Below the pieces are notes generated by a model. That model did no database searches, was not told where the DNA came from, and was given only the letters and a program-made list of their open reading frames with translations. The translations under genes were made by a program, and so were the position numbers. Positions 5,079 to 25,628 of a stretch of 35,771 bases of DNA are shown here, piece by piece (position 1 is the stretch's first letter; every line of letters begins with the position of its first letter). The stretch lies in IMG/VR virus record IMGVR_UViG_2897328257_000002. The stretch is one strand, 5' to 3'. The DNA is from a virus. Lineage: Duplodnaviria > Heunggongvirae > Uroviricota > Caudoviricetes.

Positions 5079-7489
5079 GTCATGCCGATATGAACAACTG
5101 CTGCGGCTTTAACGAAGCTGCCGCATCGTTCTCATGGAACAGCCCGAAAAAGGCCATTAACCCTTATCTGGACCCGGTGGAAGTTGCGCCGGTTTCTACG
5201 CTTTCAAACCTGATCACTCTGTACGCTGCCGATAACGAGCAGGAACAGCTGCGCCGTGAGGCGCTGAGTGATCAGGTCTGGGAGCGTTATTTCTTTAATG
5301 AATCCCGTGATCCTGTCCAGCGCGAAATGGAACAGGATAAGCTCATTAGTCGGGCAAAGCTGGCGCATGAGCAGCAGCGTTTTAATCCGGATATGGTCAT
5401 TCTGGCGGACGTCAACGCCCAGCCTTCCCATATCAGCAAGCCGCTGATGCAACGTATTGAATACTTCAGCAGCCTTGGCAGGCCAAAGGCTTATTCCCGC
5501 TATTTACGTGAGACGATTAAGCCATGTCTGGAACGACTGGAGCATGTACGCGACAGTCAGCTATCTGCATCTTTTCGCTTTATGGCAAGCCATGAAGGGC
5601 TGGACGGCCTGCTGATCCTGCCTGAAATGAGTCAGGATCAGGTGAAACGCCTGTCCACCCTGGTAGCTGCGCATATGAGTATGTGCCTTGATGCCGCTTG
5701 TGGCGATTTGTATGCCACCGATGACGTTAAGCCAGAAGAAATCCGCAATACATGGGAAAGGGTGGCAGCGGAAACCCTGCGTCTGGATGTAATCCCGCCT
5801 GCGTTTGAGCAACTCCGTCGGAAAAGAAACCGCCGTAAACCCGTGCCCTATGAACTCATTCCGGGTTCGCTGGCGCGTATGTTGTGCGCCGACTGGTGGT
5901 ACCGGAAATTATGGAAAATGCGTTGCGAATGGCGGGAAGAGCAGTTGCGTGCTGTCTGCCTTGTCAGCAAAAAAGCATCTCCCTATGTCAGCTATGAAGC
6001 CGTGTTGCATAAACGTGAGCAGCGCCGTAAGTCGCTGGAGTTTTTCCGTTCTCATGAACTGGTGAACGAAGACGGCGACACGCTGGACATGGAGGATGTG
6101 GTAAACGCCAGCAGCAGCAACCCTGCGCATCGCCGCAATGAGATGATGGCCTGTGTTAAAGGTCTGGAGCTTATCGCGGAAATGCGCGGTGACTGCGCCG
6201 TTTTCTACACCATCACCTGTCCGTCACGTTTCCATTCCACGCTAAATAACGGCAGGCCCAACCCGACCTGGACAAATGCGACGGTAAGACAAAGCAGCGA
6301 TTATCTGGTCGGTATGTTTGCTGCATTTCGTAAGGCGATGCACAAAGCCGGGTTGCGCTGGTATGGCGTGCGGGTGGCTGAGCCGCATCACGACGGCACA
6401 GTTCACTGGCACCTGTTGTGTTTCATGCGCAAAAAAGACCGCCGCGCCATTACTGCATTGTTGCGTAAGTTTGCTATCCGTGAAGACCGCGAGGAGCTGG
6501 GCAATAACACGGGGCCGCGCTTTAAGTCTGAGCTGATTAACCCGCGCAAAGGAACGCCGACAAGCTACATAGCGAAATACATCAGTAAGAACATTGACGG
6601 GCGTGGTCTGGCTGGCGAGATCAGCAAGGAAACGGGTAAATCTCTGCGTGATAACGCTGAATACGTGAACGCCTGGGCGTCTTTGCATCGTGTTCAGCAA
6701 TTCCGCTTCTTTGGCATTCCGGGGCGTCAGGCTTACCGTGAACTGCGATTGCTGGCTGGTCAGGCGGCAAGGCAACAGGGGGACAAAAAAGCAGGTGCGC
6801 CGGTACTGGATAACCCGCGCCTTGATGCCATCTTGGCTGCTGCTGATGCTGGTTGTTTTGCCACCTACATCATGAAGCAGGGCGGCGTACTGGTTCCCCG
6901 TAAATATCACCTCATCAGAACCGCTTATGAAATCAACGAAGAGCCGACCGCCTATGGCGATCACGGCATTCGTATTTATGGCATCTGGTCACCCATTGCA
7001 GAGGGCAAGATCTGCACTCATGCAGTGAAGTGGAAAATGGTTCGTAAAGCCGTTGACGTTCAGGAGGCGGCAGCCGACCAGGGCGCTTGCGCCCCTTGGA
7101 CTCGTGGCAATAACTGTCCCCTTGCTGAAAATTTGAACCAACAAGGGAAAGACAAATCAGCTGATGGGGATACCAGAACGGACATTACCCACATGGATGA
7201 CAAGGAGTTGCACGATTACCTGCACAGTATGAACAAAAAAGAGCGCCGGGAACTGGCTGCAAGGTTACGCCTGGTGAAACCGAAACGGCGTAGAGACTAC
7301 AAACAGCGAATTACAGACCATCAACGACAGCAGCTCGTCTATGAACTGAAGTCCAGAGGATTTGATGGCAGCGAGAAAGAGGTCGATTTACTCCTTCGCG
7401 GCGGCAGTATTCCGTCAGGAGCAGGCCTGCGTGTCTTCTATCGGAACCAGCGTTTGCAGGAAGATGATAAGTGGCGGAACCTGTATTAA
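5075..7489 (+). CDS. A: Replication initiation endonuclease (P2 gpA / 186 A family, rolling-circle HUH protein)
   Basis: 804 aa; HUH-like motif [10 protein letters not shown] and tyrosine-containing YIAKYISK segment; position and size match gene A of P2-like phages. Confidence 0.9.
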
Positions 7490-7581
7490 TTACGCGGGTT
7501 AACAATTCGTGCTCTTAATAATACCAGGCATATCAGGCTGATGAACGTAAAAAAACGTTTTACATCAGTAAGATTATTATA

Positions 7582-7601
7582 TACTGTAAATATAAACAGT
7601 G
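7582..7601 (+). promoter_or_regulatory. LexA (SOS) box TACTGTAAATATAAACAGTG
   Basis: CTGT-N8-ACAG palindrome with an AT-rich spacer, close to consensus TACTGTATATATATACAGTA. Lies about 40 bp upstream of the RBS/ATG at 7643, with TTTACA (7559..7564) 17 bp upstream as a possible -35. Confidence 0.7.
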
Positions 7602-7642
7602 GTTATCTATACAGTATTGTTTGCGGTGTCATAGGAGGAAAG

Positions 7643-7831
7643 ATGCAGGACTATTTTTTGGAGTCTTTGAAGCTCCAGCGCATTGATTTTTTTCTTAAGC
7701 TTGTAGCGGCTAGTGAGTGTAGTGATGAAGAGAAGGGGCTGGCCCTGCAGTGGGTTTCTGAATTGACTGATGAACTCATGGCAAAAATCAGAAGCCACGA
7801 ATACAACCGCTCAATGGATGTCATCAGCTGA
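7643..7831 (+). CDS. Small hypothetical protein (62 aa) downstream of the LexA box; possible SOS-induced antirepressor-type factor
   Basis: ATG at 7643 with AGGAGG (7633..7638). First ORF after the SOS box. The antirepressor (Tum-like) function is inferred from position only. Confidence 0.45.
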   Translation: MQDYFLESLKLQRIDFFLKLVAASECSDEEKGLALQWVSELTDELMAKIRSHEYNRSMDVIS

Positions 7832-8193: not shown

Positions 8194-8409
8194 GTGCTGG
8201 AACGTTTAACCCTTGGCGACTGGGTCTTCTTTCAACGCCCAAAGGAGTGTGGCGGAGGTTTTTGGTTGGGCCGCATCTATGAAGACTGCTTCTGGCTTGA
8301 GCTGGAATTTCCCGTTTCGCTATATGACGGCCTGGGGTTTTTGATGGAAGTCACTAGGGTAGAGCAGAGAAGTGATGAGGTTGACGCGAATTATCCCCTG
8401 TTTGATTAA
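8194..8409 (+). CDS. Hypothetical protein (71 aa from GTG); possibly a nonsense-interrupted gene starting at ATG 8149
   Basis: ORF from GTG 8194. An in-frame ATG at 8149 (GAGG upstream) is separated from it only by a TAG at 8191..8193. Confidence 0.3.
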   Translation: MLERLTLGDWVFFQRPKECGGGFWLGRIYEDCFWLELEFPVSLYDGLGFLMEVTRVEQRSDEVDANYPLFD

Positions 8410-8457
8410 AAATGTATTAGCTTATAATGGAATACTATTTTTGCAGGTGGGGGCGCA

Positions 8458-9069
8458 ATGGATTTAGTCTTTAAAGTTCTGGCTTCGTTGGGTGGGGTGT
8501 CTTTTGTTGCATCTGGCATATTTGTTTGGATCGGGAAAGTTTATTTAGAAAGATATAAGTCGCGGCTAAACAAAGATATTGCTGAATTTCAATCACAACT
8601 GAGTGCAACTAATGAAAGAATAAAGGCTAAGTTAGACAATTCTGTTTATGTAACGAAAGCGTATTTTGATAAGGAGTTATCAGCATATAGTCTCATTTGG
8701 AATTCGATGTTTGAAACCAGAGAAAGCGTGCTTAAGCTGAGGCCTGCGCTGGATCATGTTGACCCCAACGAACCATTTGAAGAGAGAAAATTTAGAAGGT
8801 TGAAAGTTTTTTTTGATGCATTTAACACTTTTGTTACAAGTGTTGAATCTAACAAACCGTTCATCTCACCAGAGGTTTATATAATCTTGGACCGTTTCCG
8901 GAAGGAATGCCTTTCAGAGTCAATATCGTTTAAGCATAGCGATCCAGAATTTGACGGGCAAAATTATTGGAAAGAGGCGGAGTTGAACCGTACAACCATC
9001 ACCAAGCTTTTTGATGAGACGTGTGATGCAATTCGAGACAGGATGCACACATTAACTGTGGTTACGTAG
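8458..9069 (+). CDS. Membrane-anchored hypothetical protein (203 aa; one N-terminal TM helix, then a charged, partly coiled-coil domain)
   Basis: ATG at 8458. N-terminus LVFKVLASLGGVSFVASGIFVWIG is hydrophobic; no recognised motif. AT-rich cargo region; followed by a terminator. Confidence 0.6.
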   Translation: MDLVFKVLASLGGVSFVASGIFVWIGKVYLERYKSRLNKDIAEFQSQLSATNERIKAKLDNSVYVTKAYFDKELSAYSLIWNSMFETRESVLKLRPALDHVDPNEPFEERKFRRLKVFFDAFNTFVTSVESNKPFISPEVYIILDRFRKECLSESISFKHSDPEFDGQNYWKEAELNRTTITKLFDETCDAIRDRMHTLTVVT

Positions 9070-9160
9070 GTTTCCAAAAAGTCTCGATGCCCGCTTTGGA
9101 GATTGTGCATGTCTATGCCGCATGAATCCGCATGATCGTTTGAGGATCGTTTTAGCTGAG

Positions 9161-9188
9161 GCCCGCCAGGAGTGGCGGGCTTTTGCTT
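9161..9188 (+). terminator. Rho-independent terminator (GCCCGCC-AGGAGT-GGCGGGC followed by TTTTGCTT)
   Basis: Perfect 7-bp GC stem with 6-nt loop and 3' T-tract, about 90 bp downstream of the 8458..9069 gene. Confidence 0.6.
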
Positions 9189-9229
9189 ATGTCATGCAGG
9201 CGCATGAAAACCGCTACATAAAGCGGGCA

Positions 9230-9248
9230 GGCGTGGCGGGGATACGAT
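9230..9248. other. Probable cos site (cohesive-end sequence GGCGTGGCGGGGATACGAT)
   Basis: Matches the P2/186 cohesive-end 19-mers as recalled (GGCGAGGCGGGGAAAGCAC / GGCGTGGCGGGGAAAGCAT) in the first 13 nt, and is followed by TGCGCGCT as at the recalled P2 left end. Sits in a GC-normal intergenic stretch between A-side cargo and the Q/P packaging genes. Confidence 0.5.
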
Positions 9249-9316
9249 TGCGCGCTAGGTATAAGTGTGTAAAATAATTCCAAAATAAATCATCCTAATG
9301 AAGTGAGAGGGTAATA

Positions 9317-10966
9317 ATGTTAGTCAAGAAAAATAAAAATTATAGTTTATATTTTTTAATTACAAATAATCAACAGATATCTGATTCTGGTAATTATATA
9401 AAAATAGTCCCATCAAGAAGCGATTGGAATGATTTTGGATATTTGAGTAGAGTCGAAATATCTATTTTTAATAAAAAAGAGTGTAAGGATATAATTTCAC
9501 TGAATGGTTATATTGGTTTTTTGAATTCAGAGGAGGAACGAAATGGAAAAGCAGAACTGATAAGGCGAGTGAAGAAAAAGGAAGAATCTAATTTAAAGGA
9601 TGAGGGGTTTAATGATTATTTTGTCATGCTTCAGGATATGAATAATTATCGAAGACTAGTAAGATTTTTTGGGGTGAATGAATCCAAATATATATTAAAT
9701 TTCATTAATGATGTTGTTTCTAAGAAAAGTGACGCTAGTGCAGAGAATTTGAGGAAAAAAGCAATCTCTTCTGATATCTTTAATAAATCTTTCATTAGAG
9801 AGTCTGAGTCGTATTTTACTTTCAAAAATGCAGGAACAGTTCTTTCCGGTATTCAATATGAGGAGTTGGGTAATTTATCACAGCACATCAAGATTAGCTA
9901 TTCGAATAAAGTTAATGAAGAAGATGTATCTTATGTTTTTAATTTTGATCACGAGCATGATTTACCAAAAAGAATTTCCATAATTATAGGCGAGAATGGT
10001 GTAGGAAAAAGCCAAACGCTTAGAGAAATCGCATTGGCTGCGATTAAAGGAAAGGATAATTTGGTGGCTGTAGTTGATTCTAACGGTGTAAGCATTGAAG
10101 AACGAATTCAAATTAGTAGGCTCATTGCTTTTTCTCCAACAAATGAAAGTAAGTGTTCATTTCCAACCGATAAAAGAATAAAATCATTGATATGGTACAA
10201 AAGATTGACTTTAAATCGTGAATCAAAATCCAAATTAAACTTGAATGATTTAATAGTGCAACTAGCGAGGAGTAACGACGCTATCGGCTATAATCAAAGG
10301 TGGAATATATTTGTTGATGCACTGAGTGTTCTAAATAGTAACAACGATTTAGTAATCAAATGTAGCGGTGAAAATTCACCATTTGTTAAATTAAATGAGC
10401 TTAATTCTCGAGGCGAAGAATCCAGACTATCATTATATTCTGAAATTATTCTCTCTGGCGAGCCTTTGAGGCTTGTTGAAAATAAATGTTACCCTTTGAG
10501 TAGTGGGGAAATATCGTTTATTAAGTTTTGTGTACAAGTCTGTTTGTATATTGAGAATGGGACTCTTCTATTAATAGATGAGCCAGAAACACATCTCCAT
10601 CCTTCATTTATTAATAAATTTATGGCATTGCTTGATAATTTATTAGAAAAGACAGGCTCTTCAGCTATCATAGCAACGCATTCGGTTTATCTTGTTCGGG
10701 AGGTTTTTAAGGAGCAAGTGACAATACTCAGAAGACGAGATGATGGGGTAATTGTTAGCGAAAAACCGAGATTGAGTACTTTTGGGGCGAATATAGGAAA
10801 TATCTCATATTTTGTTTTCGGTGAGAGTGAACCAACTCAAATTTTAAATAAAGTAAAAAATAATATAATTGCAAAGAATATGTCTTGGGATGATGTTGAA
10901 TCTAAATATAGCGAGGACTTATCACTTAATGTATTAACTGCGTTGAGAAATGAAATAGGCAATTGA
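9317..10966 (+). CDS. ABC-type (AAA_15/AAA_21-like) ATPase with ~220-aa N-terminal extension; PtuA-like candidate defence ATPase
   Basis: 549 aa. Walker A GENGVGKS (~residue 225), signature-like LSSGE, Walker B/D-loop LLLIDEPETHLHP, H-loop IIATHS. N-terminal ~220 aa has no recognisable motif. Very AT-rich; stop is 1 nt before the next start. Confidence 0.75.
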   Translation: MLVKKNKNYSLYFLITNNQQISDSGNYIKIVPSRSDWNDFGYLSRVEISIFNKKECKDIISLNGYIGFLNSEEERNGKAELIRRVKKKEESNLKDEGFNDYFVMLQDMNNYRRLVRFFGVNESKYILNFINDVVSKKSDASAENLRKKAISSDIFNKSFIRESESYFTFKNAGTVLSGIQYEELGNLSQHIKISYSNKVNEEDVSYVFNFDHEHDLPKRISIIIGENGVGKSQTLREIALAAIKGKDNLVAVVDSNGVSIEERIQISRLIAFSPTNESKCSFPTDKRIKSLIWYKRLTLNRESKSKLNLNDLIVQLARSNDAIGYNQRWNIFVDALSVLNSNNDLVIKCSGENSPFVKLNELNSRGEESRLSLYSEIILSGEPLRLVENKCYPLSSGEISFIKFCVQVCLYIENGTLLLIDEPETHLHPSFINKFMALLDNLLEKTGSSAIIATHSVYLVREVFKEQVTILRRRDDGVIVSEKPRLSTFGANIGNISYFVFGESEPTQILNKVKNNIIAKNMSWDDVESKYSEDLSLNVLTALRNEIGN

Positions 10967-10967
10967 A

Positions 10968-11831
10968 ATGAATAAATTAAAAAGACCTGTTTTTAAAGAT
11001 TATTCTGCATTTAAAAAACTATCTGCAAATAAGAGATTAAAACATCATTCTGTTCTGAATGGACAGGATACATTTATACTTAATGCATATAGATCGTACA
11101 TAAAGAATAAAGGATATCTTAATGTCAATTCTTGTGGCGTATTGAGTAACAATATTGCTGAAGCTTTGAAATATTATTATAACAATCCCGCAAAGTGTTT
11201 ATCTATAATTGATGATATAAGAGCAGCTAATTCTAATTCTCTATGTCCAATGTGTGGTTCAATGCATAGCGGGACTTTGGATCATGTTTTACCCAAGGAA
11301 AACTATCCAGAATTTTCTTTATTCACTAAGAATTTGGTTCCTGCTTGCAAATGTAATACTTTCAAAAGTACTACTATAGCTAATTCTGCAGGCCATCGGA
11401 TGCTGCATCCATATTTTGATAATATATTAAAAAAAAGATTAATATGTGCTAATTTTTCTAAATTAGGGCGAACACCTACAATTGATGTAAAAATCATAAT
11501 TGACCCAATGTCACCAGAATATAACAATGTTAAGTATCATCTTGATAATGTTGTTATCAAGAATAATATTAAGGGGTATTTGTCTGAACAATGGGAGTCG
11601 TTTTACTTATATCCTGAGCTTGTTATTAGAGGACTGAATAAGAGTCTTTCTACTTATAGCGATGTATATGAGTTGTTGACTCGCGAGTTGTTGCTGTTGG
11701 ATGAAAAACATAAAGGTAAAAATAATTGGAATTCGGTTTTTGTAGCTGGGTTAATTCGACCTGATGTGATTAGGTGGATACTCTGTGAATTACATTTAGG
11801 TAACAGAAGTCCAGACGGTCGTCTCATATGA
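10968..11831 (+). CDS. HNH endonuclease-domain protein; PtuB-like candidate defence nuclease
   Basis: 287 aa with CPMCGSMHSGTLDHVLPKENYP...NLVPACKCN...H...LHPYF, an HNH core with cysteine zinc-binding pairs. Translationally coupled to the upstream ATPase. Confidence 0.7.
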   Translation: MNKLKRPVFKDYSAFKKLSANKRLKHHSVLNGQDTFILNAYRSYIKNKGYLNVNSCGVLSNNIAEALKYYYNNPAKCLSIIDDIRAANSNSLCPMCGSMHSGTLDHVLPKENYPEFSLFTKNLVPACKCNTFKSTTIANSAGHRMLHPYFDNILKKRLICANFSKLGRTPTIDVKIIIDPMSPEYNNVKYHLDNVVIKNNIKGYLSEQWESFYLYPELVIRGLNKSLSTYSDVYELLTRELLLLDEKHKGKNNWNSVFVAGLIRPDVIRWILCELHLGNRSPDGRLI

Positions 11832-11841
11832 TTTTTTGCAT

Positions 11842-11867
11842 CTTCAGCGTGTATCTGCACGCTGAAG
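11842..11867. other. Perfect 10-bp inverted repeat (CTTCAGCGTG - TATCTG - CACGCTGAAG) between the HNH gene and the Q stop
   Basis: Seen directly; T-run lies on the 5' side on the plus strand, so not a canonical terminator for either flanking gene. Possible cassette boundary or protein-binding site. Confidence 0.4.
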
Positions 11868-11938
11868 AAATTCATAAAAACTGCTGGCTATTAATAACTT
11901 TTTTTAGTTGTGTTAAAGAACCTCATTTAGTTATTACG

Positions 11939-12970
11939 TTAAGTAGCTAGTTTATAACTATCAAATTTAACAATGTTCTCACTTACCAATTTATTTATTT
12001 CCATCATTCTTTTTTGTAACGGTATTAACTCGTTACGTACAAACACCAGGCTCGCCTTCTCCACATCCCCAAACCCCCCGACATTATTAGGCATAATCCC
12101 CATCATTTGCGGTGGCACACGATGCGCCGCCATCATGTCATCCCGGCTCACGTTCTTGATGTTCAGAAACTCATCCTTCGCCGCGACTTCTGACAACGGG
12201 ATGATCTGAAGCCCGTCCTTTTTGCCGTTAGGCGAGTACATAAACAGATTGCGGAAGTTACCTGGTCCTTTGGCGCTTTTCATCGCATTGCGGAGGTTGT
12301 TCACATCCTCCTGGTTTTGCGCGGCATCGGTCATGTACATGATGAAGCCTGCATGACTGCCGTTAATGTAATACTTTCGGCGGAACAGCGTGGCGGACTC
12401 GTTGAGCAGGGCTGACGGAATGGCAGAAAGGTAACCTGGCAGGCCGTAGATCTCCTGGTTGATGTCCGGTTCCATCAGATGAAAAATGCTGCCTTTCGTG
12501 AACTGATACGGCTGGGTTGTCATACCGTATTGCACAAACCAGTAGGTATCCAGGTCTAACCCGCGTCGGGTGTATTTTGCCAGAGCAGGCTCAAGAGCGA
12601 TGACCTCTCCGAACCGGTTTGTGCGTTTCTCCAGGTAAGCGTTACCAAATACCAGATAATCCTGCACAAAACGTGAAAAAGCCTGCTGGCTGAGCAGCGG
12701 GTGAGGGATGTAGGTACTGGTCAGAATGTTGCACTTTACTGCAATCGGGGAGCTATGATGTACGGCAGCGCGGAAGGTTCGCGCCAGTCCGTCAAAACTC
12801 ACTGGCGGCTCATACCAGCGATCTGTCTGTACGCATTCCACATAGTCCAGTAGTTCACGGCGGTCCAGAACCGGAACGGGATCGCCGAAGCTGAATGCTT
12901 CGGCTGAAGCCTGGTTTTTATGCTGGATCTGTTTCGTCGACGCAGCGCGGTTTTTCTTACTCTTTCCCAT
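11939..12970 (-). CDS. Q: Portal protein (P2 gpQ family)
   Basis: 343 aa from ATG 12968..12970; start overlaps the P stop (TGATG); size and order (Q downstream of P, both leftward) as in P2. Confidence 0.9.
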   Translation of the reverse strand: MGKSKKNRAASTKQIQHKNQASAEAFSFGDPVPVLDRRELLDYVECVQTDRWYEPPVSFDGLARTFRAAVHHSSPIAVKCNILTSTYIPHPLLSQQAFSRFVQDYLVFGNAYLEKRTNRFGEVIALEPALAKYTRRGLDLDTYWFVQYGMTTQPYQFTKGSIFHLMEPDINQEIYGLPGYLSAIPSALLNESATLFRRKYYINGSHAGFIMYMTDAAQNQEDVNNLRNAMKSAKGPGNFRNLFMYSPNGKKDGLQIIPLSEVAAKDEFLNIKNVSRDDMMAAHRVPPQMMGIMPNNVGGFGDVEKASLVFVRNELIPLQKRMMEINKLVSENIVKFDSYKLAT

Positions 12971-19853: not shown

Positions 19854-20247
19854 AGCGGTGCCTTATGTCCGCAATAACCCGGAAAAACTGCATCTGTTTG
19901 TGGATAACGGTTCGCTGGTTGCCACGGGGGCCAGCTCCATGTCGTGGGAGTACCGTTACACCCTGAACGCGGTGATTGAGGATTTCAGCGGCGACCAGAA
20001 TCTGTTGATGGCCCCGGTTTTACTGTGGCTGAGGGATAACCAGCCCGATGCCATCAATAACCCGGCGTTACGGGAAAAACAATTCACCTTTGAGGTGGAT
20101 ATTCTGCGCAACGATGTCTGTGATATCAGCTTGAACCTGCAACTGACGGAACGTGTGCTGGTCAGCACTGACGGCAGTGTGTCGAGCGTTGAAGCTGTAG
20201 CGGAACCCGATGAACCTGAAGAAATGTGGACGGTGAAACGTGGCTGA
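19816..20247 (+). CDS. R: Tail completion protein R (P2 gpR family)
   Basis: GTG at 19816 behind AGGAG (19804..19808); about 143 aa; order lysis-R-S as in P2. Confidence 0.75.
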   Translation: MNKPQSLRHALNKAVPYVRNNPEKLHLFVDNGSLVATGASSMSWEYRYTLNAVIEDFSGDQNLLMAPVLLWLRDNQPDAINNPALREKQFTFEVDILRNDVCDISLNLQLTERVLVSTDGSVSSVEAVAEPDEPEEMWTVKRG

Positions 20248-20692
20248 ACTGCAGAAAGTGGACGACTGGCTGAGTGCCTTGCTGGCGAATCTGGAATCAG
20301 CCGCCAGAAGCCGCATGATGCGCCAGCTGGCGCAGGAACTGCGCCGGACACAGCAGCAGAATATCAGGATGCAGCGCAACCCTGACGGCAGCAGCTATGA
20401 ACCGCGACGGGTAACAGCACGAAGTAAAAAAGGGCGCATCAAACGTCAGATGTTTGCAAAGCTGCGCACCACAAAATACCTGAAAACCGCCGCCAGCGCG
20501 GATTCTGCCAGCGTACAGTTTGAAGGTAAGGTGCAGCGCATTGCCCGCGTTCATCATTACGGCCTGCGCGATCGCGTCAGTCCAAAGGGGGGAGTCATTA
20601 AGTATCCATCCCGAAAATTGCTGGGTTTAAATGAACATACTGAAAATGAAGTAAGAGATTTACTTTTAAAGTATTTTTTGATGAAAAATTAG
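20240..20692 (+). CDS. S: Tail completion protein S (P2 gpS family)
   Basis: 150 aa, same size as P2 gpS; GTG start overlapping the R stop. Confidence 0.8.
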   Translation: MAELQKVDDWLSALLANLESAARSRMMRQLAQELRRTQQQNIRMQRNPDGSSYEPRRVTARSKKGRIKRQMFAKLRTTKYLKTAASADSASVQFEGKVQRIARVHHYGLRDRVSPKGGVIKYPSRKLLGLNEHTENEVRDLLLKYFLMKN

Positions 20693-20697
20693 AATGT

Positions 20698-21228
20698 TTA
20701 CGCACTTAATAAACTTAAATAACTTTTTATGCTTTGGCAAAAAGGGAAAAGGTCTATTTTAATTTTCCAGTTTTTTTTGTTTTGAACCCCAGAAGCAATA
20801 ATAGAACCATCCCAATATTTTATTCCATTTTTGCCGGTCTTTTTTGTTAACTCAAAACTTAATGCGTGAATAATTTTATTGCAGCATTCGCGTATAGAAC
20901 CTTTAACATGACCATCTATAACAAAAAGTATATTTTCATGTTCTTCAAATGCTTCTTTCTCAGGTGAGTAATCTGGGTTCCACTCATGTTCACTAGTGTC
21001 TTGGAGAATTCGTAGTTTTGTACAAAGGCTAATAAGATTGTTGCTAATGGTATATTCCAACCATCCGTTGTACGATAACTCCTCCATTTCAAATTCAGTT
21101 ACTATAGAATCATCATATACTTTCTGTGTGGAATATATACGCTGTAAATAAAATTCAGATGAACAGCATAATTGCTCAATTATTCTTGCGTGTTCTTCTA
21201 TAGCGTAATAATCAATTGGATGGCTCAT
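20698..21228 (-). CDS. Hypothetical protein (176 aa) in AT-rich moron between S and V (P2 orf30 position)
   Basis: ATG at 21226..21228 (product MSHPIDYYAIEEHARIIEQL...); opposite strand to the flanking late genes; no recognised motif. Confidence 0.6.
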   Translation of the reverse strand: MSHPIDYYAIEEHARIIEQLCCSSEFYLQRIYSTQKVYDDSIVTEFEMEELSYNGWLEYTISNNLISLCTKLRILQDTSEHEWNPDYSPEKEAFEEHENILFVIDGHVKGSIRECCNKIIHALSFELTKKTGKNGIKYWDGSIIASGVQNKKNWKIKIDLFPFCQSIKSYLSLLSA

Positions 21229-21259
21229 TCTTTTACCTTTCTTCGATTGGAATTGTATT

Positions 21260-21277
21260 TGTGTCATTTACCACACA
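21260..21277. promoter_or_regulatory. Late-promoter activator dyad TGT-N12-ACA (TGTGTCATTTACCACACA) upstream of V
   Basis: Exact dyad in the 95-bp intergenic region between the moron start and the V start. Confidence 0.5.
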
Positions 21278-21323
21278 AGGACGTATTGATGCCATAGATT
21301 CAAGGTCCGTGCAACCTAACCCT

Positions 21324-21902
21324 ATGAACGCACAACTAACCGAAATCATGCGCCTTATCACCAACCTGATCCGCACTGGGGTAGTCACCGAAGTGGATCG
21401 GGAGAACTGGCTTTGCCGGGTGAAAACGGGCGAGCTTGAAACCAACTGGATCAGCTGGCTGACGCTGCGTGCCGGAAATGCCCGGACATGGTGGCGACCA
21501 TCGGAAGGTGAGCAGGTGGTGCTGCTGAGTCTGGGCGGCAATCTGGAGACTGCCTTTGCGCTGCCCGCTGTCTATTCGAATCAGTTCGCACCACCGTCGA
21601 CGTCGGCGGACGCCTGCGTGACAGAACATCCTGACGGTGGCTGGTTTGAATACGAACCCGCCACCGGGCGCTGGTATGTCAGGGGCATCAAATCAATGGT
21701 CATTGAGGCCGCTGACAACATCACCCTGAAAACCAATGAGTTTGTACTGGAGGCTGACCGCACGCGCATTAACAGCGAAGTGGTGATCAATGGTGGCGTT
21801 ACCCAGGGCGGCGGAGCGATGAGTTCTAACGGGATCGTGGTTGATGCGCATCAGCATACTGGCGTCCTGAAAGGCGGCGACACAACCGGAGGCCCGGTAT
21901 GA
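21324..21902 (+). CDS. V: Baseplate spike/assembly protein V (P2 gpV family)
   Basis: ATG at 21324; 192 aa; order V-W-J-I as in P2. Confidence 0.85.
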   Translation: MNAQLTEIMRLITNLIRTGVVTEVDRENWLCRVKTGELETNWISWLTLRAGNARTWWRPSEGEQVVLLSLGGNLETAFALPAVYSNQFAPPSTSADACVTEHPDGGWFEYEPATGRWYVRGIKSMVIEAADNITLKTNEFVLEADRTRINSEVVINGGVTQGGGAMSSNGIVVDAHQHTGVLKGGDTTGGPV

Positions 21903-23153: not shown

Positions 23154-23751
23154 TCTGCTGCCACCGGGTTCAACACCACTGGAGCGCCGACTGGCGCAAA
23201 CCTGCAGCGGGATTTCTGATCTGCAGGTGCCGCTTCGTGACTTGTGGAATCCGGCAACCTGTCCGGTCAGTTTCCTGCCTTATCTCGCCTGGGCGTTCTC
23301 TGTAGATCGCTGGGACGAGGGCTGGACAGAAAGCGTCAAGCGCCAGGTGGTGAAGGATGCTTTTTATATTCATCAGCATAAAGGGACCACCAGTGCCGTG
23401 CGGCGGGTGGTGGAGCCGTTCGGCTTTCTGATCCGCATTATTGAGTGGTGGCAGACCGGAGAGGCACCGGGCACGTTTCGCCTGGATATCGGCGTGCAGG
23501 ACCAGGGTATCACTGAAGATACCTATCTGGAACTTGAGCGACTGATAAGCGATGCCAAACCATGTAGCCGCCACATGATCGGCATGTCCATCAATCTGCA
23601 GACCAGCGGCCCGCATTGGGTGGGAGCCGCCAGCTATCTTGGCGAAGAAATCACGATCTATCCGTATATCAACGAAACGATTATTTCCGGTGGCACCGCG
23701 CATGAAGGCGGGGCGGTCCATGTTATTGACACAATGAGAGTGAATCCATGA
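23146..23751 (+). CDS. I: Baseplate/tail protein I (P2 gpI family)
   Basis: 201 aa; overlaps the J stop and the H start. Confidence 0.8.
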   Translation: MNSLLPPGSTPLERRLAQTCSGISDLQVPLRDLWNPATCPVSFLPYLAWAFSVDRWDEGWTESVKRQVVKDAFYIHQHKGTTSAVRRVVEPFGFLIRIIEWWQTGEAPGTFRLDIGVQDQGITEDTYLELERLISDAKPCSRHMIGMSINLQTSGPHWVGAASYLGEEITIYPYINETIISGGTAHEGGAVHVIDTMRVNP

Positions 23752-24804
23752 GCACAAAATTTTATACCCTGCTGACGGATATTGGCGCGGCGAAACTTGC
23801 CAGCGCCGCCGCGCTCGGTGTGCCGCTAAAAATTACCCATATGGCGGTGGGCGATGGCGGCGGAGTATTGCCAACGCCGGACGCAAAGCAGACGGCACTG
23901 GTAAATGAGAAACGCCGGGCTGCGCTGAATATGCTTTATATCGACCCGCAGAACAGCAGCCAGATTATTGCTGAACAGGTGATCCCTGAAAACGAGGGCG
24001 GTTGGTGGATACGTGAAGTGGGCCTGTTTGATGAGTCCGGGGCATTGATTGCCGTGGGCAACTGCCCGGAAAGCTATAAGCCGCAACTGGCTGAAGGCAG
24101 CGGGCGCACCCAGACCGTGCGCATGGTGCTGATTACCAGCAGTACGGACAATATCACCCTGAAAATCGACCCTGCTGTAGTGCTGGCAACCCGCAAGTAT
24201 GTGGATGACAAGGCACTGGAGCTGAAGGTGTACGTGGATGACCTGATGGCAAAACATCTTGCCGCACCGGACCCGCATTCACAGTATGCACCCAAAGAAA
24301 GTCCGACGTTTACCGGAACCCCCAAAGCGCCAACGCCAGCGGCGGGGAATAATACCACGCAGCTTGCGACCACCGCATTTGTTCAGGCGGCACTGACGGC
24401 TCTTATTAATGGTGCGCCAGCCACGCTGGACACGCTGAAAGAAATAGCCGTAGCCATTAACAATGATCCGAAATTCAGTACCACCATTAACAATGCGCTG
24501 GCACTGAAAGCGCCGCTGTCGAGTCCGGCACTCACCGGAACGCCAACAGCTCCCACGGCGGCGCAGTCGGTCAACAATACACAGATTGCCACTACGGCTT
24601 TTGTGAAATCGGCGATTGCAGGAATGGTGGGTTCTGCACCTGCGGCCCTAGATACACTGAACGAACTGGCGGCGGCGCTGGGGAATGATCCGAACTTTGC
24701 CACGACAATGCTTAATGCGCTGGCAGGTAAACAACCGCTGGACAATACGCTGACTAATTTGAGTGGAAAGGATGTAGCTGGTCTTCTCGCATACCTTGGT
24801 TTGG
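23748..24804 (+). CDS. H: Tail fibre protein H, N-terminal (constant) part only; 3' end truncated by the assembly gap
   Basis: N-terminus MSTKFYTLLTDIGAAKLASAA...MAVGDGGG...ESYKPQLAEGSGRTQTVRMVLITS matches the recalled P2 gpH N-terminal region. Reading frame runs into the N-run at 24805. Confidence 0.85.
24312..24755 (+). repeat. Two tandem ~74-aa tail-fibre repeats within H (TGTPxAPT...NNTQxATTAFV...APAxLDTLxExAxAxxNDPxFxTT)
   Basis: Visible in the H translation (residues ~189-262 and ~263-336). Confidence 0.5.
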
Positions 24805-24815
24805 NNNNNNNNNNN
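24805..24815. other. Assembly gap (11 N)
   Basis: Run of N in the sequence; interrupts the tail-fibre region exactly where an invertible segment is expected. Confidence 0.99.
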
Positions 24816-24980
24816 ACGAATAAACTCACCACGTAAATCAGGCAATTTATTTGTCGGATAAGCCTTTGCCAGTTCCGGGTATTCTTCAGCAGAAAAAGCT
24901 GCACCGTTGCATTTCAGCCAGCCTGTCGGCGGAGTGGCTGAAGGCCATGGAACAGGTACACCAACAGGTAATGCCGAACC
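24816..24980 (-). CDS. 5' fragment of an alternative tail-fibre variable (C-terminal) segment in inverted orientation; remainder lost in the gap
   Basis: Minus-strand translation ...SALPVGVPVPWPSATPPTGWLKCNGAAFSAEEYPELAKAYPTNKLPDLRGEFIR carries the PWPS...YP.LA.AYP...PD.RG motif recalled from variable tail-fibre ends of the Mu S / P1 S / P2 H type. Lies just inside the candidate inversion site next to the invertase gene. Confidence 0.5.
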
Positions 24981-25006
24981 TTCTCCCAAACCAACGTTTA
25001 AGAAAA
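24981..25006. promoter_or_regulatory. Candidate Hin/Gin-type inversion crossover site (TTCTCCCAAACCAACGTTTAAGAAAA)
   Basis: 26-bp imperfect palindrome with AAACC-AA-(G)GTTT core resembling recalled hix/gix sites; located between the variable fibre fragment and the invertase gene. Confidence 0.45.
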
Positions 25007-25061
25007 TGCAGCGATTACGGCTAACTGGCATCATCCCCGGTTTTTATTCAGGGGGATGATC

Positions 25062-25628
25062 ATGCTTATTGGCTATGTACGCGTGTCAACAAATGACCAG
25101 AACACCGATTTGCAACGTAATGCACTGAACTGCGCGGGATGTGAGCGGATTTTTGAGGATAAAATCAGTGGCACTAAGTCCGACAGACCAGGGTTGAAAA
25201 AACTGCTCAGGACACTATCGGCAGGAGACACGCTGGTTGTCTGGAAGCTGGACAGGTTGGGGCGCAGTATGCGGCATCTTGTTACGCTGATAGAAGAGTT
25301 GCGTCAGCGAGGCGTGAATTTCCGAAGCCTGACTGACAGTATTGATACCAGCACCCCAATGGGCCGTTTCTTTTTTCATGTCATGGGTGCCCTGGCTGAA
25401 ATGGAACGCGAACTGATAGTTGAACGTACCAGGGCAGGGCTGGCTGCAGCTCGTGCCAAAGGCAGAGTAGGTGGACGCCGTCCTAAGTTGACCACCGAAC
25501 AGTGGGCACAGATTGGGCGTTTACTCGAGGCCGGAGAATCAAGACAGCGTATTGCACTGATTTTTGATGTAGGCGTTTCTACCATTTATAGAAAATTTCC
25601 GGCAAATAAGAGCAATGAATCTCCCTGA
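25062..25628 (+). CDS. Serine-recombinase DNA invertase (Gin/Hin/Pin/Cin family)
   Basis: MLIGYVRVSTNDQNTDLQRNAL... with catalytic serine context VRVSTNDQ and C-terminal HTH (VGVSTIYRKF); essentially collinear with recalled Gin. ATG at 25062 behind GGGGG; an alternative ATG at 25056 is in frame. Confidence 0.9.
   Translation: MLIGYVRVSTNDQNTDLQRNALNCAGCERIFEDKISGTKSDRPGLKKLLRTLSAGDTLVVWKLDRLGRSMRHLVTLIEELRQRGVNFRSLTDSIDTSTPMGRFFFHVMGALAEMERELIVERTRAGLAAARAKGRVGGRRPKLTTEQWAQIGRLLEAGESRQRIALIFDVGVSTIYRKFPANKSNESP

Follow-up and report, generated by a model that had tools for sequence, protein, structure and literature searches.

The window analysed here, 35,771 nucleotides, is a P2-like prophage with Escherichia phage Cartapus (strain LF82; Peduoviridae, Elveevirus) as a near relative. 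It carries a single minus-strand gene between the tail genes S and V (Table 1). S, the last gene of the O late operon, is convergent with this cargo gene, with 5 bp between the two stop codons; V, which opens the V late operon, is divergent from it, and 95 bp separate the two ATG codons. Across positions 20600-21350 the GC content is 0.29-0.36, compared with 0.55-0.61 in both flanks, and GC3 is 0.26 in the cargo gene, 0.65 in the conserved part of S and 0.48 in V.

Table 1. Features of the S/V locus, in window coordinates
Feature	Position	Strand	Basis or remark
Tail completion / virion morphogenesis gene S	20240-20692	+	RefSeq; Pfam Phage_tail_S in relatives
C-terminal ~37 codons of S, swapped together with the cargo gene	20581-20692	+	Comparison of slots
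Variable module, 730 bp, 33% GC	20581-21310		Pairwise alignment with empty-slot prophage L025
Cargo CDS, 531 nt, 176 aa	20698-21228	minus	WP_000019233.1; phrog_18838
Shine-Dalgarno AAAGG	21240-21236	minus	7 nt before ATG 21228; kept in 7 diverged relatives
TACAAT, -10-like hexamer of presumed cargo promoter	21257-21252	minus	By eye
Perfect TGT-N12-ACA dyad	21260-21277		Within variable module; overlaps non-conserved ATG 21267
Baseplate spike gene V	21324-21902	+	RefSeq; Pfam Phage_base_V in relatives

Counted from the first ATG, the six-frame listing gives a minus-strand ORF of 189 aa (20698-21267). This longer reading was dropped, since its ATG is not conserved and lies inside the dyad, and since nearly all homologues have MSHPI as their N-terminus, where the 176-aa form begins. 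The shorter form is exactly what RefSeq annotates in an E. coli chromosome that is 100% identical, and gp14 of phage Cartapus has the same extent.

Several lines of evidence bear on whether the ORF is a gene at all. Its dN/dS is 0.106 against a copy that is 85% identical and 0.100 against one that is 75% identical. An exhaustive profile search finds homologues in 468 representative clusters (E<=1e-3), and 1,833 clusters at 90% identity come from a word-indexed search (E<=1e-5). Because selection is so strong, homologues are so many, the structure is predicted with confidence and the LF82 orthologue is transcribed (see below), we conclude that the ORF is a real, maintained gene.

Homology to an empty-slot relative stops at 20580 and restarts at 21311, so that 730 bp stand in place of 161 bp. 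This variable module holds the cargo gene, its upstream region and the end of S, and leaves no room for a second conserved ORF. After the conserved RLLG of S, a different C-terminus is found with each different cargo; the tail ...IKYPSRKLLGLNEH... occurs only with the present cargo and is common to all its carriers, including those in Salmonella and Enterobacter. The co-varying tail could mark a recombination breakpoint or a functional coupling.

Upstream signals were compared in seven relatives with identity down to 57%. The dyad is kept in every relative, and in the empty slot as well. Since its form matches the P2 activator site annotated upstream of V, we read it as a P2-type late-activator (Ogr) box for the V-operon promoter; lying over the cargo upstream region, it may also let the late activator act on transcription of the cargo gene. 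Just downstream of the dyad on the cargo strand is the TACAAT hexamer, found in six of the seven relatives. This hexamer, picked out by eye, is the presumed promoter of the gene; the consensus promoter/terminator scan calls no minus-strand promoter and predicts no terminator between S and the cargo gene. An Rfam scan of 20300-21600 gives no match.

A slot for one gene between two late operons

In the annotation of P2, the space from the O-operon terminator to the P_V activator site is taken by Orf30, a nonessential minus-strand gene. The slot is the joint of two late transcription units, the O and V operons, and for that reason insertions are tolerated there. In all 18 IMG/VR loci and in contigs of Salmonella and Enterobacter (21 phage loci in all), the cargo gene sits between a convergent S and a divergent V. 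Its divergence roughly parallels that of S and V, which argues for long residence in the slot within one P2-like sub-lineage.

Most prophages with these flanks do without the gene. The flanks R-S/V-W are found in 1,051 of 5,426 complete E. coli genomes and the cargo gene in 22 of the 1,051, every copy being at least 99% identical; the carriers are human, animal and environmental strains. About 98% of E. coli prophages that share these S and V genes lack it. For a survey of what else the slot may hold, an evenly spaced sample of 60 records was used. The slot is empty in 25 records and holds a DUF6216 protein in eight, a TIR protein in three, a SIR2 protein in one, other hypothetical proteins (145-401 aa) in ten and the present cargo in two; the other 11 match the query only in part, 10 of them over V-W only. 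Of the sampled relatives, half have nothing in the slot, and in the others it holds a single unrelated gene. Where occupied loci were inspected, the slot held a single gene in 8 of 8 cases, on either strand.

Some of these sister cargoes can be identified. The 401-aa SIR2 cargo (locus L012, 827-2032) matches the PADLOC models LmuA and ThsA, the 271-aa TIR cargo (L011, 1206-2021) matches PDC-S66, and a 350-aa cargo matches the peptidase_U41 model of PADLOC. Further cargoes are DUF6216 proteins (E. coli B and C) and unannotated proteins of 145, 271, 307 and 401 aa; with the 350-aa cargo they occupy loci L013-L018.

The site was previously known as one of horizontal transfer (PMC3091744; PMC6823313), and a 2026 survey places a defence hotspot within the P2 tail genes (PMC13586616); the classic hotspot papers cover only old/tin and Z/fun. 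With patchy presence at a fixed, core-flanked site and a deviant base composition, the cargo gene has what characterizes a hotspot cargo: it is a horizontally acquired, non-core, single-gene insert at the orf30 position. The initial annotation, made from the window alone, had described a 176-aa, AT-rich, minus-strand ORF between S and V, at a place where P2 has a nonessential gene, and had taken it for a moron; extent, composition, position and the moron-type distribution are all borne out, and the comparison of related prophages that it proposed reveals a one-gene swap site. It had also held that presence in all relatives, under the purifying selection typical of core genes, would speak against a moron. 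Here the picture is divided: selection is indeed purifying, and the same slot is used in Salmonella and Enterobacter prophages, but the gene is not in all relatives. Purifying selection where the gene is present, combined with patchy presence, makes it a maintained functional cargo and not a core gene.

The window has variable regions elsewhere, too. A second AT-rich island (8301-12200, GC 0.34-0.40), with replication genes on one side and the portal gene on the other, occupies the old/tin hotspot and has plus-strand ORFs at 8458-9069, 9317-10966 and 10968-11831. Within it a 549-aa ATPase (AAA_21) and its 287-aa partner match A and B of the PADLOC candidate system PDC-M01 (E 2e-55 and 1e-33), and the 203-aa ORF upstream of this pair has no match. 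Farther on, in the region 24648-25628, a Gin-type DNA invertase gene (25056-25628) adjoins oppositely oriented ORFs that follow the tail-fibre gene at 23748-24836; the matching region of Cartapus is annotated with inverted tail-fibre and fibre-assembly genes adjoining a Gin-type invertase. Taken together, the invertase with its opposed ORFs and the Cartapus annotation suggest an invertible host-range segment at the Z/fun position.

The protein and its family

The cargo protein is acidic (pI 5.25) and soluble, has a mass of about 20 kDa and contains no transmembrane or hydrophobic segment. Its family is single-domain, and AlphaFold2, given 15 sequences, returns a confident model (pLDDT 90.2, pTM 0.86). 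Long helices are predicted at residues 7-34 and 45-78, followed by a short helix (89-95), a strand (101-105), a second short helix (112-120), a three-strand meander (124-159) and a C-terminal helix (160-175).

For conservation we use 69 family members with about 20-40% identity to the window protein. At least 90% of these sequences keep R73, D77, R113, N117, K118, H121, A122, G147 and W154; E114, C116, L145 and H3 are also strongly conserved, and the most distant branch retains the same residue set. The near-invariant motif of the family is a helix with the pattern R-E-x-C-N-K-I-I-H-A, which reads R113-E-C-C-N117-K118-I-I-H121-A in the window protein; this helix, together with R73/D77, G147 and W154, identifies it as a member. 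Because R113, N117 and H121 are spaced i, i+4, i+8, they lie on one helix face, and R73 and D77 likewise share one face of helix 2. That Arg, Asn, Lys, His and Asp residues are invariant in bacteria and archaea alike appears to point to catalysis or to binding of a universal ligand and not to recognition of variable phage proteins.

Comparison with known families returns little. The only library match is to phrog_18838, a family of unknown function, which the protein matches over its full length (E 3.7e-133, 1-189/189), as do 69 of the 69 diverse members; when the 69 relatives are searched against Pfam and PHROGs, it is also the only family matched by more than one of them. No Pfam or NCBIfam model matches the cargo protein, and PADLOC 2.0 gives 0 families at E<=10. 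Pfam searches with the 69 relatives yield scattered single matches, all at E above 0.003, and no Pfam hit falls in the HEPN clan at E<=1. Sequence-profile searches of the PDB with two family alignments find chance matches only, and a Foldseek search has best E-values of 0.12 in the PDB and 0.18 among the BFVD viral models. The Foldseek check proposed in the initial annotation therefore gives no PDB or viral-model match better than E 0.1, and homology to a structural or assembly protein, which it had named as evidence against a moron, is not found in PHROGs or Pfam. Its remark that the product has no recognisable motif holds for the known libraries (Pfam, PADLOC, NCBIfam) and fails for the family itself, whose motif is very strongly conserved.

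The family is not a HEPN family on present evidence. Its motif is R113-x7-H121 with N117 between, as against R-x4-6-H in HEPN proteins, and hhalign gives a probability of 0.09 for a match to the DUF4145 protein of Cartapus and a 25-sequence DUF4145 profile. DUF4145 is a HEPN-type family present in that sister phage, and its profile stands for one HEPN family. The cargo protein may act like a HEPN RNase, by analogy; we do not claim that it is one.

Outside the P2 slot, relatives are found in marine Vibrionaceae, Pseudoalteromonas and Chloroflexi, and in several kinds of context. A copy in Aliivibrio, 45% identical, is a lone cassette between two of eleven repeats of about 130 nt, which start with TAACAAA, end with GCGTTA and have ends that pair in a hairpin; this layout is that of attC sites in Vibrionaceae. 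Its neighbour cassettes encode a Lit-like protease and two acetyltransferases. On a metagenomic contig (L046), a same-strand array comes after an integron-type integrase, with the family member as its third cassette, and a copy in Pseudoalteromonas is flanked by short attC-like repeats. What defines an integron cassette is thus found in these relatives of the window copy: repeats bound each ORF in Aliivibrio, and the metagenomic contig has both integrase and array. In Aeromonas caviae, the copy lies within an integrated inovirus-like prophage (Zot/RstB/Rep_trans) adjoining the integrase. Lone family members also occur in Ornatilinea, an archaeal MAG (Ca. Argoarchaeum), Photobacterium and others, and several distant homologues are among ordinary chromosomal genes with no defence neighbours. 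No conserved partner gene accompanies the family in any context inspected (P2 slot, integron, inovirus-like prophage, chromosomes). The family moves as a self-contained unit, whether in the P2 slot, as an integron cassette or in the inovirus-like prophage.

Some of these loci have further features of their own. The contig of Aliivibrio sp. S4MY1 (L002, 1-15374) is a chromosomal integron-type array in which, besides the 11 attC-like repeats, there are six copies of a repeated element of about 300 nt; its Lit-like protease cassette is at 6655-7785 (PADLOC Lit, E 2e-23). In Pseudoalteromonas aliena (L005, 8671-10510), a 370-aa ATPase of AAA_23/SMC_N type and an overlapping 245-aa ORF with no match lie directly downstream of the family member, in a layout that resembles two-gene defence systems. 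The Aeromonas caviae element (L021, 3287-13247) comprises Zot, DUF2523, RstB and Rep_trans and lies beside a tyrosine integrase; the family member there adjoins a 189-aa ORF with no match.

Transcription and possible function

Published RNA-seq of strain LF82, tabulated as log2(fpkm+5) (PMC9928086), can be read for the orthologue, which is 98-99% identical and listed as LF82_787/CARTA_14 in the S1 table of that paper. Its two values are 3.5 and 2.7 after overnight growth in LB, 5.06 and 5.16 after 1 h in DMEM, and 5.89 and 5.97 after 6 h in DMEM; in macrophages they are 5.1-5.3 and then 4.4-4.6. The gene is thus at background in the overnight LB culture and at about 30-55 fpkm in DMEM and in macrophages. 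Over the same conditions S stays at 2.3-3.6, and V at 2.4-3.1 except for 4.0-4.3 at 6 h in macrophages (PMC9928086). Since CARTA_14 is above S and V, which stay mostly silent, the cargo gene appears to be transcribed on its own from a repressed prophage, at a modest level, in DMEM and macrophages and not in LB overnight. Independent expression in lysogens, as expected in the initial annotation, is therefore borne out in part, with the exception of that last condition.

The LF82 authors do not call CARTA_14 a moron, as its expression in LB overnight is at background, below their threshold (PMC9928086). The 'moron' of that study, LF82_789, was considered as a match for the present gene and rejected: the S1 table equates LF82_789 with CARTA_47, and CARTA_14 has the lower expression. 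CARTA_1 (DUF4145, at the old/tin position) and the neighbouring hypothetical gene CARTA_47 go from log2 values of about 4.7-5.6 in LB to about 9.5-10.5 in macrophages, a much stronger rise than that of CARTA_14 (PMC9928086).

What might the gene do? Our tentative answer, held at somewhat less than an even chance, is that it is a phage-exclusion or abortive-infection gene. What leads to this reading is the location, in a slot that TIR and SIR2 cargoes also use, together with mobility (integrons and two phage types), autonomy (no partner) and enzyme-like conservation. The cargo protein would be a cytoplasmic enzyme that needs no partner and takes part in conflict between mobile elements. One helix face (R113, N117 and H121, with E114/K118), R73/D77 and H3 would make up its active surface, an arrangement that may resemble metal-independent RNases such as HEPN; about half of the credence that we give to exclusion goes to RNA-directed, HEPN-like chemistry of this kind. 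In a lysogen, the protein would be harmless until triggered, and competing phages would then be excluded or their infection aborted. In the late phase of its own prophage, the cargo gene could be silenced by read-through from the O operon, antisense to it and with no terminator between, and also by binding of the activator over its upstream region.

Several findings speak against exclusion: the protein has no PADLOC match, its expression in LB overnight is at background, several of its distant homologues have no defence neighbours, an acidic protein is unusual for a nucleic-acid enzyme, and the promoter is assigned by eye only. In its fullest form the proposal is of an anti-phage (abortive-infection) family not recognised before, which acts as a single protein and has an alpha/beta fold of its own; its catalytic R-x3-N-K-x2-H helix would work like that of HEPN RNases with no detectable derivation from them, and the family would be common to P2-like phages, inoviruses, integron arrays and bacterial and archaeal chromosomes. 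So complete a statement is possible but doubtful.

Alternatively, the product could serve the phage's own infection or establishment of lysogeny, as a counter-defence or host-takeover factor, for example an inhibitor or decoy against a host immune system. A small acidic protein in phages of two unrelated types would suit such a role, and the overlap of its upstream region with the late-activator box makes activator-dependent expression possible. However, the gene points against both late operons and has transcripts in uninduced lysogens, where the late genes are mostly silent; the family is also known from integron cassettes and from chromosomal settings that are not mobile, among them the archaeal MAG and Chloroflexi; and R, N, K, H and D residues that do not vary between phyla are more readily explained by a universal substrate than by a protein target that evolves fast. 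We consider this unlikely.

Equally improbable, in our estimation, is a lysogenic-conversion factor that acts on host physiology (stress tolerance, an intracellular or gut lifestyle) and not on phages. The rise of the transcript in DMEM and macrophages, seen in the adherent-invasive strain LF82, and the human, animal and environmental E. coli that carry the gene would agree with it. On the other hand, relatives in marine Vibrionaceae, Pseudoalteromonas, Chloroflexi and an archaeal MAG make a host-cell-specific role of the family unlikely, and the other identifiable cargoes of the slot have defence-type domains.

A smaller chance still is left to the toxin of an addiction (toxin-antitoxin-like) module, restrained by an antisense RNA or small peptide that has escaped annotation, and stabilizing the prophage or integron array. 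Such modules are abundant in integron arrays, the conserved residues look catalytic, and convergent transcription of S, with no terminator predicted, would supply a natural antisense RNA. Yet the 730-bp module has no space for another conserved ORF and no Rfam RNA, no partner gene recurs in any context, and carriage as a single cassette with no partner argues against constitutive toxicity. Finally, an accessory tail protein for virion structure or assembly is close to refuted: the position between tail genes and the co-varying C-terminus of S are in its favour, but the gene is absent from nearly all E. coli prophages with the same S and V, lies on the opposite strand, occurs in integrons and a filamentous prophage as well, and matches no structural PHROG or Pfam family.

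If exclusion is the right reading and this is a defence gene, it would represent a compact new type of effector, and phage hotspots and integron cassette pools would form one shared gene market; if it is not, it is one more hypothetical prophage gene. The S/V (orf30) site is far less studied than the old/tin and Z/fun hotspots. Because it is a strict one-gene swap site whose identifiable cargoes include TIR and SIR2 proteins, its unannotated cargoes make a short, testable list of candidate single-gene immunity functions. The present cargo is the most attractive of these, with a large family that has no Pfam, NCBIfam or PADLOC model, a confidently predicted structure that finds no counterpart in libraries of solved or viral folds, a few invariant polar residues and independent capture by three kinds of mobile element.

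Comparison with known systems

The nearest comparison is with P2 Orf30, which shares the slot between O-operon end and P_V activator site, the minus strand, the AT-rich composition and the nonessential type of cargo. It differs in length (261 aa, compared with 176 aa) and has no sequence similarity to the cargo protein; homology to it (NP_046770.1) was rejected, with BLASTP giving E 0.21 and no meaningful alignment. As there is no sequence similarity, the cargo gene is a positional analogue of P2 Orf30 and not a homologue. P2 Orf30 itself (L044, 1440-2225) shows a weak match to the DUF6216 cargo of E. coli B/C prophages (L013, 834-1640), with 23% identity over 172 aa and E 0.043, so these two most common slot cargoes may be related.

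Chromosomal integrons reportedly serve as a store of anti-phage cassettes (bioRxiv 10.1101/2024.07.02.601686). The family is like these in that compact cassettes of a single gene, one of them adjoining a Lit-like protease cassette, carry its members in arrays of Vibrionaceae type; for the majority of cassettes in arrays of this kind, no function is known.

Compared with the P2-like defence hotspots at old/tin and Z/fun (Rousset et al. 2022, PMC9122126) and in the tail genes (PMC13586616), the S/V slot differs in holding exactly one gene or none, and the present cargo differs in matching no known or candidate defence model in PADLOC. In other respects the likeness is close: AT-rich, swappable cargo lies between conserved phage core genes, sister cargoes of the same slot carry TIR and SIR2 domains, and the same prophage has the PDC-M01 candidate system at its old/tin position. 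As a hotspot cargo the gene is of an ordinary kind; its family is uncharacterised and unusually well defined.
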